Source: Verrucomicrobiota bacterium (GTDB lineage Bacteria > Verrucomicrobiota > Verrucomicrobiia > Verrucomicrobiales > DEV007). From it: a stretch of DNA of 64,000 nucleotides. Shown in pieces: positions 57,649 to 64,000 of the stretch (positions are counted from its first letter, which is position 1; every line of letters begins with the position of its first letter). The translations under genes and the position numbers were made by a program. The DNA is taken from positions 15,039-79,038 of the forward strand of contig JASFYY010000049.1 in the NCBI GenBank assembly GCA_045046875.1, given 5' to 3'. The notes beneath the pieces were generated by a model that saw nothing but the letters and a program-made list of their open reading frames with translations, was not told the DNA's origin and did not search any database.

Positions 57649-58407
57649 ATGCAGAGTGAAGAGGATAGTTTTTTGGCTGAAAGAGGCTTGGGGCCATTGC
57701 GGGTGTGGTGCGATGAACAGCCACGCTCGGCGGCTTTGAACATGGCTATTGATGAGGTGTTGCTGCGTGAAATGCATGAATCCGCGGGCAAGGTGCCGAT
57801 ACTGCGTTATTACGATTGGCTGCGACCGTCGGTATCGATTGGCTATTTCCAGCGTTGGCGGGAAACGATGGATATTTGCGAACTTGAGAGCTTGGATGTG
57901 ATCCGGCGTTGGACTGGAGGTGGCAAGGTGGATCACCGTAAGGATCAGACTTATACCTTGGTGGTTTCCCGCGATCATCCGTTTTATTATCTGCCTCCGG
58001 CGAAAAATTATCGCTGGGTGCATCGGCAGGTGGTGGCAGCTTTGCAACAAATCGGGACGCAGGCCCTGGTGACGGATCGTGTTGATTCATTTTCGCCGCG
58101 TGGAGATCATTCCCCCAATTGTTTTGATCGCCCAGTGCAGTTTGATGTGGTGGATGATGATGGGGGAAAGGTGGCCGGAGCGGCTCAACGGCGAACCCGC
58201 TGGGGATTGTTGCATCAGGGCAGTGTGGTGGAAGACGGCTTGAGCGGGGATGAAAACAAGCGGGCCTGGCAGGTGTCTTTGGCGGGATTGTTGAGCGGCA
58301 AGCGCAGTGGCGTGATCGACTGGCAGCCGCCGGAGCAGTGGTTGCAGCAGGCGCAACGCTTGGCTGAAGAGAAATATGCGCCAAAGTCCTGGTTGGAAAA
58401 ATTTTGA
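57649..58407 (+). CDS. Lipoate-protein ligase A / octanoyltransferase (LipM-like) family
   Basis: NMAIDEVLL, LRYY.W..P.VSIGYFQ, RRWTGGG.V.H, KVAGAAQRR, LHQGS. Confidence 0.88.
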   Translation: MQSEEDSFLAERGLGPLRVWCDEQPRSAALNMAIDEVLLREMHESAGKVPILRYYDWLRPSVSIGYFQRWRETMDICELESLDVIRRWTGGGKVDHRKDQTYTLVVSRDHPFYYLPPAKNYRWVHRQVVAALQQIGTQALVTDRVDSFSPRGDHSPNCFDRPVQFDVVDDDGGKVAGAAQRRTRWGLLHQGSVVEDGLSGDENKRAWQVSLAGLLSGKRSGVIDWQPPEQWLQQAQRLAEEKYAPKSWLEKF

Positions 58408-58433
58408 TGGGGAGATTTGAGCGGTTGATTTTT

Positions 58434-58461
58434 ACCACGGATTGCCCGGATGAACACGGAT
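58434..58461 (+). repeat. REP-like (CGGAT)x3 repeat, copy 5
   Basis: accacggattgcccggatgaacacggat. Confidence 0.7.
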
Positions 58462-58542
58462 AAAAAAAGAGATTGAGTTGCTATCCGCCTGCTGGGAGCA
58501 GTGAGAGTGAGGCTTGCAGGTTATTTTCATCAACTTGAGAGC

Positions 58543-58570
58543 TTGAATACTGGAGCTTTCGGGCTAGGGT
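58543..58570 (+). promoter_or_regulatory. Putative sigma70 promoter of the interrupted tRNA copy
   Basis: TTGAAT-16-TAGGGT; homologous to 58800-58827 at the same distance from the tRNA start. Confidence 0.5.
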
Positions 58571-58605
58571 GCACGACTTGCAGGGAATATTCATTTCGGC
58601 ATAAA

Positions 58606-58778
58606 GGAAGGATGGCTGAGTCTGGTCGAAGGCGCTCGATTCGAAATCGAGTGTAGTGCAAGCTACCGTGGGTTCGAGTGCTCATCGTCTCGCAAGGCGA
58701 GACTGAAGGTTTACGAGCGAAGCGAGCAAGAAGCACAGATGGAGTTTCGCGGCTGCGAAACGGAATCAATCCCACTCC
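58606..58778 (+). pseudogene. Interrupted tRNA-Ser(CGA) copy: 72 nt identical 5' body + 91-nt T-loop insert + ATCCCACTCC, lacking the final TTCCGCCA
   Basis: 58606-58677 identical to 58863-58934; insert 58678-58768; 58769-58778 matches 58935-58944. Confidence 0.85.
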
Positions 58779-58799
58779 GATTTTGATTCACTTGTAGGC

Positions 58800-58827
58800 T
58801 TGAAACTTGGATGGATTGAGCTAAGGT
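58800..58827 (+). promoter_or_regulatory. Putative sigma70 promoter of the intact tRNA-Ser
   Basis: TTGAAA-16-TAAGGT. Confidence 0.55.
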
Positions 58828-58862
58828 TCGCCACCCGAGTGCTGAGACACTTATAGGTAACA

Positions 58863-58952
58863 GGAAGGATGGCTGAGTCTGGTCGAAGGCGCTCGATTCG
58901 AAATCGAGTGTAGTGCAAGCTACCGTGGGTTCGAATCCCACTCCTTCCGCCA
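58863..58952 (+). tRNA. tRNA-Ser(CGA), 90 nt, CCA encoded
   Basis: Acceptor GGAAGGA/TCCTTCC, anticodon arm CTCGA-TTCGAAA-TCGAG, long variable arm, T arm GTGGG-TTCGAAT-CCCAC, G discriminator + CCA. Confidence 0.97.
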
Positions 58953-59043
58953 AATTTTCTGTAAGGGGTTAAGGGTCATGTAACTCGTTTATTATCAAAG
59001 GCTGCAAATTGCGCCATGTACGTTTTTGATGTAAGTTATACGA

Positions 59044-60933
59044 GTGAAAGAGATGCGAAAACACCCAGGTTTGCGAAGGCGAGAGAATGTATTTTTTATT
59101 GGTCGCGCCATCCCAATAGACCTCAGAGGAAAGGGCCCCTATGTCACCAAGACGGGGAAGCCTAAAAGTGAAGTTGTGCGAACGCTCGGCACATCCGATT
59201 ACAAACAGGCAGCAAGGAGGGTCTATGAGGAGTGGGCACGATTTGATCAGGAATTCGAGCGTGAGCGGTTCAAGCTGAGTCGCCCTGATCTTAGAGGTTC
59301 AGAGCTCACGGGGCGACTGGAGGCTCTGGATCGAGTGGGGTTCAAGTCGATGGCGGCCAAGGAGCTTGATGCAGAGGATCATGCAATGAGGTATTTCGTA
59401 CAGCTTGAAAAACAGGCAGAGGAGGAGATTCCTGATTTGGTTGCCTCTCTTTCTGAGGATGAGCTGGCGGAGCTTGTTCTCGATTGGCGGAAGGATGCGG
59501 ATGCTTTGCGTGGCGAAGGAAGGCCACAGTATCATGATGATGGTTCAAGCTACGCATTAGACTATTTTGAGACTCAAGGAATTTTGCTGGAACCCGATTG
59601 TGAAGGTTTGCAAAAAATTGCAAACCTGTTTCGACGGGTGCGCTTGGAGAATGTTGTGCGGAATATTGAGAGGATCAGTGGCAATCCGCCTAAAGGAGAT
59701 GATCCGCTTTTTTGTGATCTGAACGGTTTTTCACCAGTGCCCTCTTTGCGAAGTGATAGCGCGAACGCAAAAGGGGAGACAGTGGGAGGAGTAGTGGACG
59801 GATTTCTGGATGACTTGAGGAAGGCGAACCGATCAGAGGGGACTCTTCGGACTTACCAGATTCCGGTTCGGATATTGAAACAGTATTTTGGAGTAAAAAA
59901 ACCTATCGCTGAAATCACTCGTGCGGACATATCTGAGTTGTTAGATGTTCTTCTGAGGTATCCAAAAAATGCCATGCAGAGATATCCAGGCAAGTCGATA
60001 CAAGAGGCAATCCGGATAGCGGAGGCGACCAAGGGCTATGAGAGGATAGGGGGCGTTACCTTGAGGAACTATTTTAACAACATTGCGACCATTTTTAAAC
60101 GCGCTGAAAAGATGGGATGGATTACTACCAACCCAACCAATGATCCATTTTTCCGAACACGATTCAAGGTGGTGAAAAAATCCAAAGCGCAGTTTTCAAT
60201 CGAGAAATTGAACCGCATATTCCAAGCGCCACTCTATACGGGCTGCCAGAATGACAAAATGGGTTGCAATCGACCTGGTCCCAATAAGCCAAGACGAGGC
60301 CGGTTTTGGGTTCCTTTGTTAGGTTTATTTCAAGGCATGCGGCTGAACGAGTGTTGTCAGCTTTGGGCTTCTGATATTTGCGAAGCGGACGGGGTGGCTG
60401 TGATTCGGGTTTGGCTTGGTGAGACGGAAGAGGAGATGGGGCAGAAGCGATTGAAAAAAGAAACAACTGCTCGATTCATTCCGATCCATCCTGAACTTTT
60501 AAAGATGGGTTTTTTGGATTTCGTCGAACAGCATCGTGAGCAATCCGGGGAGCCACGTTTATTCCCTGATCTGAAAGCCAGTAAAGCTGGATACTATAGC
60601 GATGCATTTAGTAAATGGTTCTCTCGCTTTGTGGTGGCAGTGGCAGGTAAAGATTGTCAGGCTACGTTCCACAGCTTTCGGCATATGTTCAGGGATGCCC
60701 TGAGAGAGGCTGACGTGAGTTTGGAGAGGGTTGATGCTTTGGGCGGTTGGCAATCCACTCAGGGGATGCAGGCGCATTACGGACAGGGTTTCAAGATGCC
60801 CACGCTCTATGAGGAAATTAGGAAGGTGGAATATAAGGGGCTGGATCTTTCCCCTCTCTACCGCGAACAAACAGATGAAGAGATGATGGGGGGAAGCTTT
60901 GCAAAAATTTGCAAGAGGCGAAGATCTGGTTGA
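59044..60933 (+). CDS. Tyrosine recombinase / site-specific integrase with long N-terminal (DUF6538-like) region
   Basis: R.IP.DL...EVVRTLGTSD...A N-terminus; GMRLNE, RFIPIHPEL, FHSFRH, LGGW, HYG catalytic residues. Confidence 0.9.
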   Translation: MKEMRKHPGLRRRENVFFIGRAIPIDLRGKGPYVTKTGKPKSEVVRTLGTSDYKQAARRVYEEWARFDQEFERERFKLSRPDLRGSELTGRLEALDRVGFKSMAAKELDAEDHAMRYFVQLEKQAEEEIPDLVASLSEDELAELVLDWRKDADALRGEGRPQYHDDGSSYALDYFETQGILLEPDCEGLQKIANLFRRVRLENVVRNIERISGNPPKGDDPLFCDLNGFSPVPSLRSDSANAKGETVGGVVDGFLDDLRKANRSEGTLRTYQIPVRILKQYFGVKKPIAEITRADISELLDVLLRYPKNAMQRYPGKSIQEAIRIAEATKGYERIGGVTLRNYFNNIATIFKRAEKMGWITTNPTNDPFFRTRFKVVKKSKAQFSIEKLNRIFQAPLYTGCQNDKMGCNRPGPNKPRRGRFWVPLLGLFQGMRLNECCQLWASDICEADGVAVIRVWLGETEEEMGQKRLKKETTARFIPIHPELLKMGFLDFVEQHREQSGEPRLFPDLKASKAGYYSDAFSKWFSRFVVAVAGKDCQATFHSFRHMFRDALREADVSLERVDALGGWQSTQGMQAHYGQGFKMPTLYEEIRKVEYKGLDLSPLYREQTDEEMMGGSFAKICKRRRSG

Positions 60934-60956
60934 AAAATTCGGGTTCTCTTTGGTCA

Positions 60957-61196
60957 TTAACTTTCTTTATCTTCGACCTGTTTGCATATTTCGCTCAGCG
61001 GCACATCCAACGCGCTGGCAATGGCTTGAAAAACGAACAGTGTGCCGTTGATACTTTTTGATTCAACACGGCTTACCGTTGAGCGATGAATTCCCGCTTT
61101 CTCTGCTACAGTCTCGTGTGACAGCCCAAGCTCTTTGCGCCGAGCCTTGAGAGCGTCGGTGATTTTTCCCACAAATTCTTTCGGGTCGGCAGACAT
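60957..61196 (-). CDS. XRE-family HTH transcriptional regulator
   Basis: LKARRKELGLSHETVAEKAGIHRSTVSRVE..IASALDV. Confidence 0.88.
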   Translation of the reverse strand: MSADPKEFVGKITDALKARRKELGLSHETVAEKAGIHRSTVSRVESKSINGTLFVFQAIASALDVPLSEICKQVEDKES

Positions 61197-61374
61197 TATT
61201 GAAAAATAGTGTTGCCATGGGACGATGAATACGTGCATATATGCACTTGTGAGATATGGGTAAAAATTTAAGGCGTTCTTGTGGCAATCGAATAGTGAGC
61301 TTAGAGGGTGTTTATACTAACTTATTAGATAGGTTTTTAAGAGAATAAATTAAAAGGTCAAAAAAGGAATAGCT

Positions 61375-62181
61375 ATGAAAAAAATATTTGGATGCATTGG
61401 AATAATGGTTATTGGCTCAATTATCCTTGTTGCTCTCGGTGCGATATTTACAGGAATGAAAGTAAATGATGGTGTTGACGGTGAGCAGGGGGCAAGTTCG
61501 AGTGTGGCGGCAACAGTCAAGCCTGTTACGCCAGGAGGAAAGCCTAATGGAACCCCCCAAGTTGATGGGGCGGAAAATCAGAGGGCGAAGGGAGCGAGTA
61601 AGGAGATTCTGAGGATTGCGGGGAATCGTAATCTGTGGCCCAAGCAAGTTACTTTGAAGGAATCAGTGGAGATGCCAATTATTTCCGAAGGTAAGCAGAT
61701 TGGATCTATGAAAATTGCTGTCGGCCAACGGTTAGATCTCATTAATGTCACGAGTGAGAAAGTTGAAGTCGGTAGGGATGAGGGACGTGTCTTGGTTGAT
61801 GTAAACGTAACGGACTTGGTAGCACAGTCGCACGCTGCTCAAGATAAGAAAAAAGCAGACGCTATTGCGAAGAAAAAAAATCATGAAGCTATGTCGGCGG
61901 CGAAGCAGAAGGGAATAGATAAGTCTTTCATGCAGAGTTCCCTAGATGCTAATTGGGTGACATACATTGAGCAGAATGACGATCCTGATTTGGCCTATCA
62001 TTTTTATGTGCGACTTCCCTCGGTAAAATATACGACAAAGGAAAACGTCAAAAATATTGCTGAGCATATTGCTCGGTCTTATGTGATGCAAAGCAAGAAT
62101 AAGGGAGGCACTGCCACCAAGGCTACTATTCATGTGTTCCAAGGCGATAAGGTGCTAGTGCGAGGAACCTATCGTGAGTAA
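61375..62181 (+). CDS. Hypothetical protein with N-terminal membrane anchor
   Basis: 268-aa ORF with SD-like AAGGA upstream and an N-terminal hydrophobic helix. Confidence 0.7.
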   Translation: MKKIFGCIGIMVIGSIILVALGAIFTGMKVNDGVDGEQGASSSVAATVKPVTPGGKPNGTPQVDGAENQRAKGASKEILRIAGNRNLWPKQVTLKESVEMPIISEGKQIGSMKIAVGQRLDLINVTSEKVEVGRDEGRVLVDVNVTDLVAQSHAAQDKKKADAIAKKKNHEAMSAAKQKGIDKSFMQSSLDANWVTYIEQNDDPDLAYHFYVRLPSVKYTTKENVKNIAEHIARSYVMQSKNKGGTATKATIHVFQGDKVLVRGTYRE

Positions 62182-62694
62182 GGTGTCAAGATTTTGCCGC
62201 CTATAGATTAGCTGATTGTGAAGGTCTTCCATTTTCCAACTTAGATGGAAATAGATCTCCGTGGGCCAAGGTGTTTCTGGCTCCCTTCCATGCATCTACC
62301 GATTTTTCAAATTGACCATTCCAAATCAAATGGAGAACGAACTCTAGGACAGCTTTATTTTTGCTGCATCGGTTTGAGTAATGCAGAAAGTGCATCAAAT
62401 GATTATGGATCTAATTTAAGTTGCCGACAGATGAGGCTTTTTTCGATTCGAATCAGTGCCTCGATTTCCCTTCAGCATTGGTAGAGTGGGGATTAGAGCC
62501 AATCGGCGATGTTTAGTAAATTGCCGAAAAAACGTGGGCAAGAATTTTATATTATCCGTTCACTTTGTGGCTAAGTAAGGAGCGAAGGGGGAAATAGTTC
62601 AATTGGAGAATTGCTTGAGAGGGGGGGGGATTTGGCTTTATCAGTGAAAAAGACGTTGAAATTGGTTGTTATAATTATTATTATATAAACCAAT

Positions 62695-63717
62695 ATGAAA
62701 GCTGAAACTTCTTTGCAAAAATTTGCAAATCCTGTCGCAGATGAGCGTGAATTGGCTCGCCTGTGCTCCAGTCCCACCTATCAGACGCTCACGCTCAATC
62801 CGGCCGCAGTTTATCTGGAATCATTAGGCAGTGATGTTTCACGGCGGGTCATCAAAAGTTCTTTGAATTCGGTAGCTCGTCATATCAATCCGGCTTCTGT
62901 TGTGAGGGATGCTTGGCAGATGGTAAGGTGGGATAAATTGACAGCTCCTTCAGTGAGGCTGCTTCTTGCAAAGACAAAGGGCAGCCCTGCTACCCGTAAC
63001 AAAATGTTATCGGCTTTGAAAGGGGTGACTCGGATGGCTTGGGAAATGCGATTGCTCGATACCGACGAACTGGAGCGCATCCGTGCCATTAAAGGGGACT
63101 CTGGAACGAGGGAACTGAGCGGACGGTGTATCCCCGAAGGGGAAATAAGTGCCTTGCTCAATGCTTGTGGCAGAGATCCTTCTGCTGCCGGAGCTAGAGA
63201 TGGCGCTATGATTTCATTGGCTGCCGTGACTGGGGCGAGAAGGGCCGAAATTGCTGGACTGGATGCGGGCCGGATGAAAATTGAGGAAGACGATACGATT
63301 ACGCTGAAGGTGATAGGGAAGCGGAATCGAGAACGCACCCTCTTTGTAAGGGGTAACGCTTATCGTGCTCTTAAAGATTGGTTGAAGGTTAGGGGGGGCG
63401 ACGAGGGAGCAATATTCTGTATGATTGGAAAGGGGGGGCGTATAGATACTTCTCATTTTGTCAGTCCCGTGGCTCTCGACAAGACCCTCGGAAAACGGAG
63501 CAGGGAAGCTGGGATTGAGAAGGTGAAGTGGCATGATTTTAGGCGCACCACTGCCAGTAGTTTTCTCGATGCCGGAGCGGATATTGCCACAGTCGCCAAA
63601 ATCATGGGGCACGCTAATGTTCAAACTACCGCTAGGTATGATCGGAGAGGGGAGAGGGCTCAGAAAAAAGCGGCGGGGCTTTTGTCGGTGCCTTATTTCA
63701 AAAGGTATGCAAATTAA
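62695..63717 (+). CDS. Second tyrosine recombinase (XerC/Cre-like resolvase)
   Basis: RDGA, TGARRAE, GKRNRER, HDFRRT, MGHANVQTTARYD. Confidence 0.92.
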   Translation: MKAETSLQKFANPVADERELARLCSSPTYQTLTLNPAAVYLESLGSDVSRRVIKSSLNSVARHINPASVVRDAWQMVRWDKLTAPSVRLLLAKTKGSPATRNKMLSALKGVTRMAWEMRLLDTDELERIRAIKGDSGTRELSGRCIPEGEISALLNACGRDPSAAGARDGAMISLAAVTGARRAEIAGLDAGRMKIEEDDTITLKVIGKRNRERTLFVRGNAYRALKDWLKVRGGDEGAIFCMIGKGGRIDTSHFVSPVALDKTLGKRSREAGIEKVKWHDFRRTTASSFLDAGADIATVAKIMGHANVQTTARYDRRGERAQKKAAGLLSVPYFKRYAN

Positions 63718-63858
63718 AGGAATAGAGGTAACCTGATTCCTATTAATTATGTTACCCTTTTTTCGGCATGTGGGAGCGAGATTGGGTAAAGTATGGTATA
63801 TTATTCACTGTGAGTAATGTGGATGAAAACTATCTGATGATAGGTGAATTTACTGCTA

Positions 63859-64000
63859 ATGAATAAATATCTTAATAAAAAAATGGAATATTTCGAGAGC
63901 CTAAAAATACTGCGTCAGCGGCTCGTCCCGATGAGCTGCCAGGCCCAGGCGGTCGCGTTCTTTATCTTTGGTCGCACGGCGTCGTGGAAAAAAGAATGGG
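63859..64000 (+). CDS. 3'-truncated ORF, possible phage/plasmid replication-initiator (lambda O-like) N-terminus
   Basis: Open to the window end: MNKYLNKKMEYFESLKILRQRLVPMSCQAQAVAFFIFGRTASWKKEW. Confidence 0.4.
   Translation, partial: MNKYLNKKMEYFESLKILRQRLVPMSCQAQAVAFFIFGRTASWKKEW

Follow-up and report, generated by a model that had tools for sequence, protein, structure and literature searches.

Islands integrated at tRNA genes leave attL/attR scars, and a class of them that uses the T-loop exists. The described repeats closest to the locus reported here are the tRNA-linked repeats (TLRs) of Escherichia coli, of which K-12 has 22, defined by an 18-19-bp tail; those in tRNA operons have no known function, and, in the excerpted text of PMC8144298, neither an origin nor a general function is known for TLRs as a group. 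Their transcription and processing yield defined RNAs, which interact with Hfq and CsrA (PMC8144298, excerpt). In the literature searched, which lay mostly outside the subscription journals, TLRs were treated only in that paper and, judging by its listing, in an editorial (PMC9245011), and a treatment of TLR cores fused into a T-loop was not found.

The locus lies in the window, by which we mean the whole 64,000-nt stretch of DNA analyzed; coordinates refer to it, all of the features given lie on its + strand, and its genome is referred to as G000. Behind an lplA-like gene of the lipoate-protein ligase family (57649..58407; Pfam PF21948/PF03099), an upstream chromosomal anchor that also precedes the split copy in the relatives G005 and G001, come a promoter-like region with a leader (P1, 58521..58605), recognized by sequence and homologous to P2 below, and copy 1 of a tRNA-Ser(CGA) body, which runs from base 1 to the T-loop motif GGGTTCGA (58606..58677) and is identical to copy 2. 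A TLR-family core follows (58678..58769, placed by alignment, covariation, and matches to our model R1, with the right boundary taken from G59 tRNAs), then a truncated copy of the tRNA 3' tail, made of a T-stem strand and three acceptor bases without CCA (58770..58778), a second promoter-like region with a leader (P2, 58779..58862), and the intact copy 2 (58863..58952), which is the one tRNA gene called by ARAGORN in the window and the sole tRNA-Ser(CGA) in the assembly. The original prediction had described two units 257 bp apart with identical tRNA bodies, the upstream one interrupted by a 91-nt insert, resuming as a tail and lacking a 3' end. All of this was reproduced: the bodies agree at 73/73 positions (58605-58677 versus 58862-58934), copy 1 breaks after GGGTTCGA at 58677 and resumes with ATCCCACTCC after the insert at 58678-58768, and GATTTT stands in the place of TTCCGCCA. 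The reading that we prefer, and consider reasonably probable, is that of a tandem promoter-plus-tRNA-Ser(CGA) duplicate, in which a likely dead upstream copy has been split by a TLR core that likely spread as folded single-stranded DNA and relied on an enzyme encoded outside itself.

An assembly artefact might have been expected, given a short repeat in a fragmented assembly of 163 contigs, yet this reading, to which we assign practically no probability, is already refuted. The whole stretch recurs at 98% in G005, from the same genus, and the same structure is present in contigs from three runs of three studies (X1, X2, and X3, with 0, 0, and 1 differences over 58648-58891; the window itself may come from the sample of one of these runs), with a diverged form in G001 and in the X20 contig. 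At tRNA-Ser(CGA), the split arrangement was seen in 3/401 genomes of the order; five more candidates for it proved to be ordinary tRNAs with a TTCGACT loop.

The insert also occurs beyond this locus, as the hairpin core shared by a family of repeats that usually lie downstream of a tRNA. In the window, a 4-bp closing helix (GTGC/GCAC) encloses two hairpins, one of them with a GCGAAGC triloop cap flanked by GA/GA, and is followed by an AGA linker, a third hairpin, and the right end TCAA. The insert had been described as structured, which holds at the level of the family and much less for the single sequence, as it folds only modestly better than its shuffles when taken alone (z of -1.55 sense and -2.53 antisense). 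Across 15 aligned cores, 90.7% of the cells of the common fold are paired and 9/16 pairs have changed on both sides (0/500 shuffles as high; slid controls 19-43% paired), figures that overstate certainty, the controls being lenient, because the cores are related and the structure was drawn from the same sequences. The X20 contig, which was outside the alignment, shows a compensatory replacement of C-G by T-A in its first hairpin. None of the Rfam families searched matched the insert. A pattern for its subfamily found 4 loci in the genome collection, all in contigs of the genus, and 0 in viral contigs; its single metagenome match is a unit downstream of tRNA-Ser(GGA).

The model R1, built from the 15 aligned cores (all non-E. 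coli), matched 117 places in 46/131 genomes of the bacterial family, where the tRNAs upstream of cores are of at least 19 types. Rescoring of 99 loci gave 126 matches, and 124 cores remained after two duplicates were dropped. Both automatic classifiers of core context made errors, and unusual cases were read by eye; a pattern test placed an antisense arm before 98 cores and found it absent at 24, with 2 at contig edges, and as it erred both ways, a fair figure is ~100/124. A like number, ~100/124, lie downstream of a tRNA with neither a promoter nor a 5' tRNA part. The usual build is a tRNA, a spacer, an inverted T-arm copy, GTTCGA, and the core, after which come AA, TCC, and another tRNA tail, a full one in some related units (e.g., L032). 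In G000 itself, tRNA-Arg(ACG) and tRNA-Asp(GTC) each have related sequence behind them, and two serine tRNAs have similar units behind their displaced 3' ends.

Ten cores, counted by eye, are fused directly into a T-loop. They are those at the tRNA-Ser(CGA) locus of the window, G005, and G001, others in T-arm scars (G003, G315, and G273) or in whole tRNAs of arrays (one in G381 and two in G315), and a split tRNA-Glu copy in G346, where an intact copy follows 29 nt later, which repeats the window's layout at another tRNA and in another genus. Other cores sit at a D-arm site (L213), after an anticodon stem (L218), in a coding frame (L263), or in one case between genes (L200); the G297 core, in a duplicated 5' piece of tRNA-Ser(CGA), and the G315 core after the anticodon stem both have a similar motif. 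Near-identical cores carry different tRNA tails, and in G003 (L057), two tandem units with the same flanks hold different cores. These tandem units, together with the variety of sites, indicate that the core moves or is exchanged apart from the tail. We note separately that the coding case (L263:487-573, on G017 C163) is translated in frame in a DUF1549/DUF1553-type protein (labeled by eye) and lies beside a short tandem repeat, and that L218 (G315 C251), L230 (G381 C64), and L256 (G346 C56) are large arrays whose tRNA genes are atypical, several of them with a core.

How closely, then, does this family resemble the E. coli repeats? Both share GTTCGA, a multi-hairpin core with C-GNA-G loops, AA followed by TCC, and a copy of the tRNA tail. 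The antisense T-arm build of the downstream relatives of the window's core is also that of the tyrT-tyrV (RtT, RF00391) and serX repeats, and tyrT-TLR-tyrV places a repeat between two tRNA copies, as at the window locus, where the core lies behind the body of copy 1 and before copy 2, in keeping with the definition of a TLR (PMC8144298, excerpt). The window differs in the fusion of its core to the tRNA body, in lacking an antisense arm, and in having a second promoter-like region behind the unit; its repeated tail (ATCCCACTCC) is only 10 nt long, or 9-10 nt depending on the boundary, against 18-19 in E. coli. RF00391 had no match at E<=10 in 58400-59100 and none at its gathering score in L060 or L057, whereas it matches the E. 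coli tyr and serX units. Conversely, R1 gave two matches in K-12 at E<=1, both of them serX repeats (22.7 bits, E 0.4; 4 candidates scored), which are RtT by Rfam, and missed the tyr units. The link to the E. coli repeats thus appears strong in layout and weak in score, and since the core is TLR-like but falls short in tail length and in the RF00391 tests, we file it as a TLR variant.

Whether copy 1 can still yield a tRNA bears on the suggestion that the insert is an intron-like element of the T-loop, with copy 1 spliced to a tRNA. Removal of the core does restore a 7-nt T-loop, and in silico removal gives a relaxed-score ARAGORN call at 4/124 places, among them the whole array tRNA-Arg(TCG) and tRNA-Asn with intact CCA, as well as the G005 copy. 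For the window's copy, however, ARAGORN gives no call after removal, and the acceptor stem cannot be rebuilt: it pairs as GT, GT, AA, AG, GC, GC, AT, and then TTGA, which amounts to two mismatches, two G-U pairs, and no CCA. Lesions are found in three relatives, with U8 changed to G in G005 and the closing base of the variable stem changed in G001 and the X20 contig. A 58677-58769 splice joint was not seen in four runs, one of them RNA, searched as contigs that are unable to prove absence; the insert matches no Rfam intron family; and the cores at the D-arm site, after the anticodon stem, and in the coding frame do not fit a T-loop intron. Further, in the Asn case of G315 (the one compared among its Asn, Pro, and Gly cases), the genome has another, ordinary tRNA-Asn arm at a different place, and behind G59 tRNAs the base at the junction is the core's A, not the tRNA's G. 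No split copy found anywhere was shown to be its genome's sole copy of a needed tRNA. Because copy 1 is without an acceptor end and carries lesions in relatives, we regard the intron reading as very improbable and copy 1 as likely a dead gene; in annotation, such split copies may pass for intron-bearing tRNAs.

Three explanations had been offered for an invariant tRNA body between diverged flanks, namely selection, gene conversion, and recent capture, and gene conversion fits best. The variable-arm variant GTAGTGCAAGCTAC occurs only in G000 and G005, and there in both copies, the relatives, including the X20 unit, having the commoner form; the 84-nt upstream regions of the two copies are only 57% identical, albeit with 0/1000 shuffles scoring as high. 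From these comparisons, homogenization is the better reading of why the two bodies agree. The duplication of a promoter, in turn, stands in part: the 24/37 alignment was reproduced, with TTGAAT (58543-58548) and TAGGGT (58565-58570) separated by 16 nt and followed by a weak leader hairpin in P1, and TTGAAA (58800-58805) and TAAGGT (58822-58827), again 16 nt apart and followed by a leader hairpin, in P2, yet the boxes fail a sigma-70 consensus scan. Because that scan gave 0 sites, the label "promoter" rests on position and conservation. A scan for terminators likewise found 0 sites. P2 likely drives the working tRNA-Ser(CGA) gene. All of the tRNA-Ser(CGA) leaders compared (the window, L034, L035, and L036) have a hairpin after the -10-like box and before the tRNA, with differing sequences.

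The conservation of these parts is also what could suggest that copy 1 and its core form a functional RNA, either as a 5' tRNA fragment with an RtT/RrB-like small RNA or through read-through tuning of tRNA-Ser(CGA). Between the window and G005, core, tail, and P2 show 0/185 differences (tail and P2 alone, 0/94), core and P2 are nearly invariant across X1, X2, and X3 as well, and where X20 and X3 do differ, stem pairing is retained through G-U or compensatory pairs. A relative is represented by a metatranscriptome contig that covers 58605-58891, and the E. coli precedent of defined Hfq- and CsrA-binding RNAs (PMC8144298, excerpt) points the same way. Against this, a nearby 244-nt intergenic stretch is likewise invariant between the two genomes (0/244), so the invariance of core, tail, and P2 no more than hints at selection or at a younger unit, and P1, from which such an RNA would start, is the most variable part (9/85 sites). 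The RNA contig runs through P2 without a change in depth and may derive from DNA, the loops belong to a DNA type rather than to GNRA, and the rarity of the split arrangement in the order also counts against this reading. We therefore consider a functional RNA improbable here.

A further alternative takes the 257-bp unit (core, tail, P2, and the 5' part of the tRNA) as a mini integrative element, whose circle would enter at the T-loop and rebuild the gene. It draws on the shuffling of promoter types across the genus: a P2-type promoter adjoins lplA, as the first promoter, in G001 (34/42 identical from the -10 box on, by hand count), and a P1-type leader is core-adjacent in G003 (28/36 identical). 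A candidate hybrid of P1 and P2 in the first promoter of G001 was unsupported, its distal parts matching at 14/28 and 16/28. G003 also holds two core-promoter-5' tRNA units in different contexts, and the unit assembles as a 286-287-nt loop in X3 and X20. A tandem repeat yields the same loop, however, and the unit-to-flank depth ratios of the contigs (2x, 0.6x, and 1.4x) are not copy numbers. Moreover, the G346 duplicate has no promoter between its copies, no integrase travels with the unit (G005 lacks an adjacent one), the subfamily pattern is missing from the viral contigs, and, because ~100/124 cores stand downstream of a tRNA without a promoter, a promoter duplication lies outside the core's usual build. 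What survives of the original mini-element idea is a small element that targets a T-loop motif; that it brought its own promoter and 5' tRNA half was not shown, and we hold the integrative unit to be unlikely.

The preferred reading, of a core that likely spread as single-stranded DNA, draws on its loops and its right end, besides the covariation and the cores at non-T-loop sites and inside a gene. In 16 cores, C-GNA-G triloops occur 30 times on the sense (tRNA) strand and 0 times on the antisense strand, against a mean of 4.95 and a maximum of 12 in 500 shuffles; these cores were picked by tail or antisense arm, three of them via likeness to the window's insert and three from E. coli. GNRA tetraloops, by comparison, are not enriched (5 versus 5.6 in shuffles). 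GCGNAGC is a very stable DNA mini-hairpin, with a Tm of 70-76 C, while the related GCGAAAGC is much less stable as RNA and then melts at 39 C, and such hairpins are found at single-strand origins and at the N4 promoter (PMC13037366, excerpt). For the right boundary, a search with the antisense arm of G59 tRNAs, in which the right end was left free, returned 34 matches, 30 as loci, of which 7 were first units behind a tRNA T-loop. All 7/7 end AA|TCC (one read by eye and three from one genus), and because they do, the A before TCC belongs to the core; the window's insert accordingly ends, probably, at 58769, one base later than the 58768 of the original prediction. The right end is most commonly TCAA, in 57/124 cores, and ends in AA in 106/124, as found with a model biased to TCAA, and TCAA is the right cleavage site of IS608 (PMC3201880, excerpt).

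Taken together, the triloops and the right end would agree with the handling of the element as a single, folded strand of DNA, comparable with IS200/IS605 ends and REP/BIME. These systems, the latter with TnpA-REP (RAYT), likewise have strand-specific hairpins and a right end that is often TCAA, insert 3' of a short motif without target duplication, and amplify in tandem (PMC3201880 and PMC3333891, excerpts). The cores differ from them in having no adjacent transposase gene, in often replacing one target base, and in their strong tie to tRNA T-arms. Ssn nucleases with their NTS/SRM repeats offer another parallel, as small hairpin repeats recognized as single-stranded DNA, with tRNA going unmentioned in the main text of the excerpted paper (PMC11893778). 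The published SRM pattern found no match in the window unit or among 15 cores. Frame, motif, and genome searches gave no support to GIY-YIG/Ssn or RAYT enzymes as mobilizers: neither a Y1 transposase nor a GIY-YIG protein was found among 114 frames downstream of 42 cores examined, the only GIY-YIG match in G000 sits in a 539-aa frame, with no small GIY-YIG gene found in that genome, and none of its 15 Y1 matches lies at its three core places found.

As a separate observation, these 15 places represent an expanded family of ~330-aa Y1-transposase-like proteins, with at least 12 close copies and a common short upstream motif. Elsewhere in G000, triloop-rich modules like the core's middle hairpin occur, on one strand, inside other dispersed palindromic repeats (contigs C6, C10, C37, C40, and C50, and further C67, C78, C83, C137, and C146); these modules and the cores may share a mechanism.

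Two routes to copy 1 can be envisaged. First, it could have formed by collapse at a tRNA with its downstream repeat. At an island end common to G007 and G315, G315 is without exactly the 66 nt that lie between two GGTTCGA motifs in G007, where a T-arm, tail, antisense arm, and core stand in order, and this clean 66-nt deletion leaves a T-loop-fused core; the same collapse at the window locus would produce copy 1. Second, a core inserted directly after GTTCGA would lead to copy 1 as well, and cores in arrays and in a coding frame suggest that direct insertion happens. At the window locus, the data are compatible with collapse and with direct insertion alike. By either route, the change would be tolerable solely through copy 2, which provides the tRNA with P2 as its promoter-like region, and recombination would then keep the tRNA bodies identical while the promoters drift and are exchanged. 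For the joining step itself, we predict a hairpin-recognizing single-strand enzyme, for which HUH/Y1 is the nearest model, that would join the right end of the core, usually NNAA and often TCAA, to the target TCC.

Extending this account, TLRs, unexplained since 1978, might be non-autonomous single-stranded DNA mini-elements that home to the T-loop GTTCGA, with the antisense T-arm, as found in the usual downstream unit, for a self-encoded DNA guide and spare copies that may shield the working gene. We offer this generalization tentatively and think it, on present evidence, rather unlikely than likely. The spare promoter-plus-tRNA copies would then be where direct hits survive, possibly as sacrificial landing pads. 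The locus, a likely dead copy, has value as a test case that, with its relatives, makes the origin of TLRs testable, through three handles: the core moves apart from the tail, its loops are strand-specific and of a DNA type, and its right end supplies the base of T-loop position 59. Should these three hold, widespread bacterial repeats would be a mobile-element family with an enzyme that recognizes tRNA genes and is maybe retargetable.

Copy 2 is also the 3' integration site of genomic islands, as its 3' scars on C40 attest, and an ordinary 3' genomic island with a DUF6538 and tyrosine integrase (59044..60933, by Pfam) directly follows it. The locus thus resembles tRNA-integrated islands in its duplicated tRNA pieces and in lying at a real island site, but island scars are 17-19-nt 3' pieces, and the split copy is a 5' body, upstream, and present in the island-less G005. 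The original prediction that this is not the usual attR scar is upheld by the true scars of this tRNA on C40, which number two, the flank after the last one (8891) matching the flank after copy 2 in G005. Because G005 has the split copy with no integrase there, the split copy is independent of the adjacent island; the adjacent integrase was ruled out as its maker, and the one at 59044..60933 is probably unrelated to it.

Several minor observations concern the surroundings. A short repeat at 58428-58467, dispersed in G000 and its relatives, resembles those beside GxxExxY genes, and one strain in X2 is without 58408-58540. Two valine tRNAs of G000 (C9:47232 and C14:9298) are followed by a different hairpin repeat, and on C14 the 3' end occurs twice together with its flank, at a distance of 185 nt and with no core of the TLR-like family. 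In G003, whose assembly contains no whole tRNA-Ser(CGA), the loci L031 and L035 (C27 and C61) and L116 show two copies of a core end, a promoter, and the first 65 nt of tRNA-Ser(CGA). The same non-tRNA sequence follows both 65-nt pieces, and the region is bordered by type I secretion operons that are paralogous; the candidate explanation that these 5' fragments are ends of integrase islands found no integrase evident in the long frames of the flanks, as judged by eye. Finally, window 59044-64000 and G000 C40:8891-12867 represent a tandem pair of islands that occupy the 3' end of tRNA-Ser(CGA) and whose arms are near-identical. Another tyrosine recombinase, the second, is found at 62695-63717, and the inner 2.4-kb island, which begins with a tRNA-linked repeat, contains a 581-aa frame that is autotransporter-like by eye.
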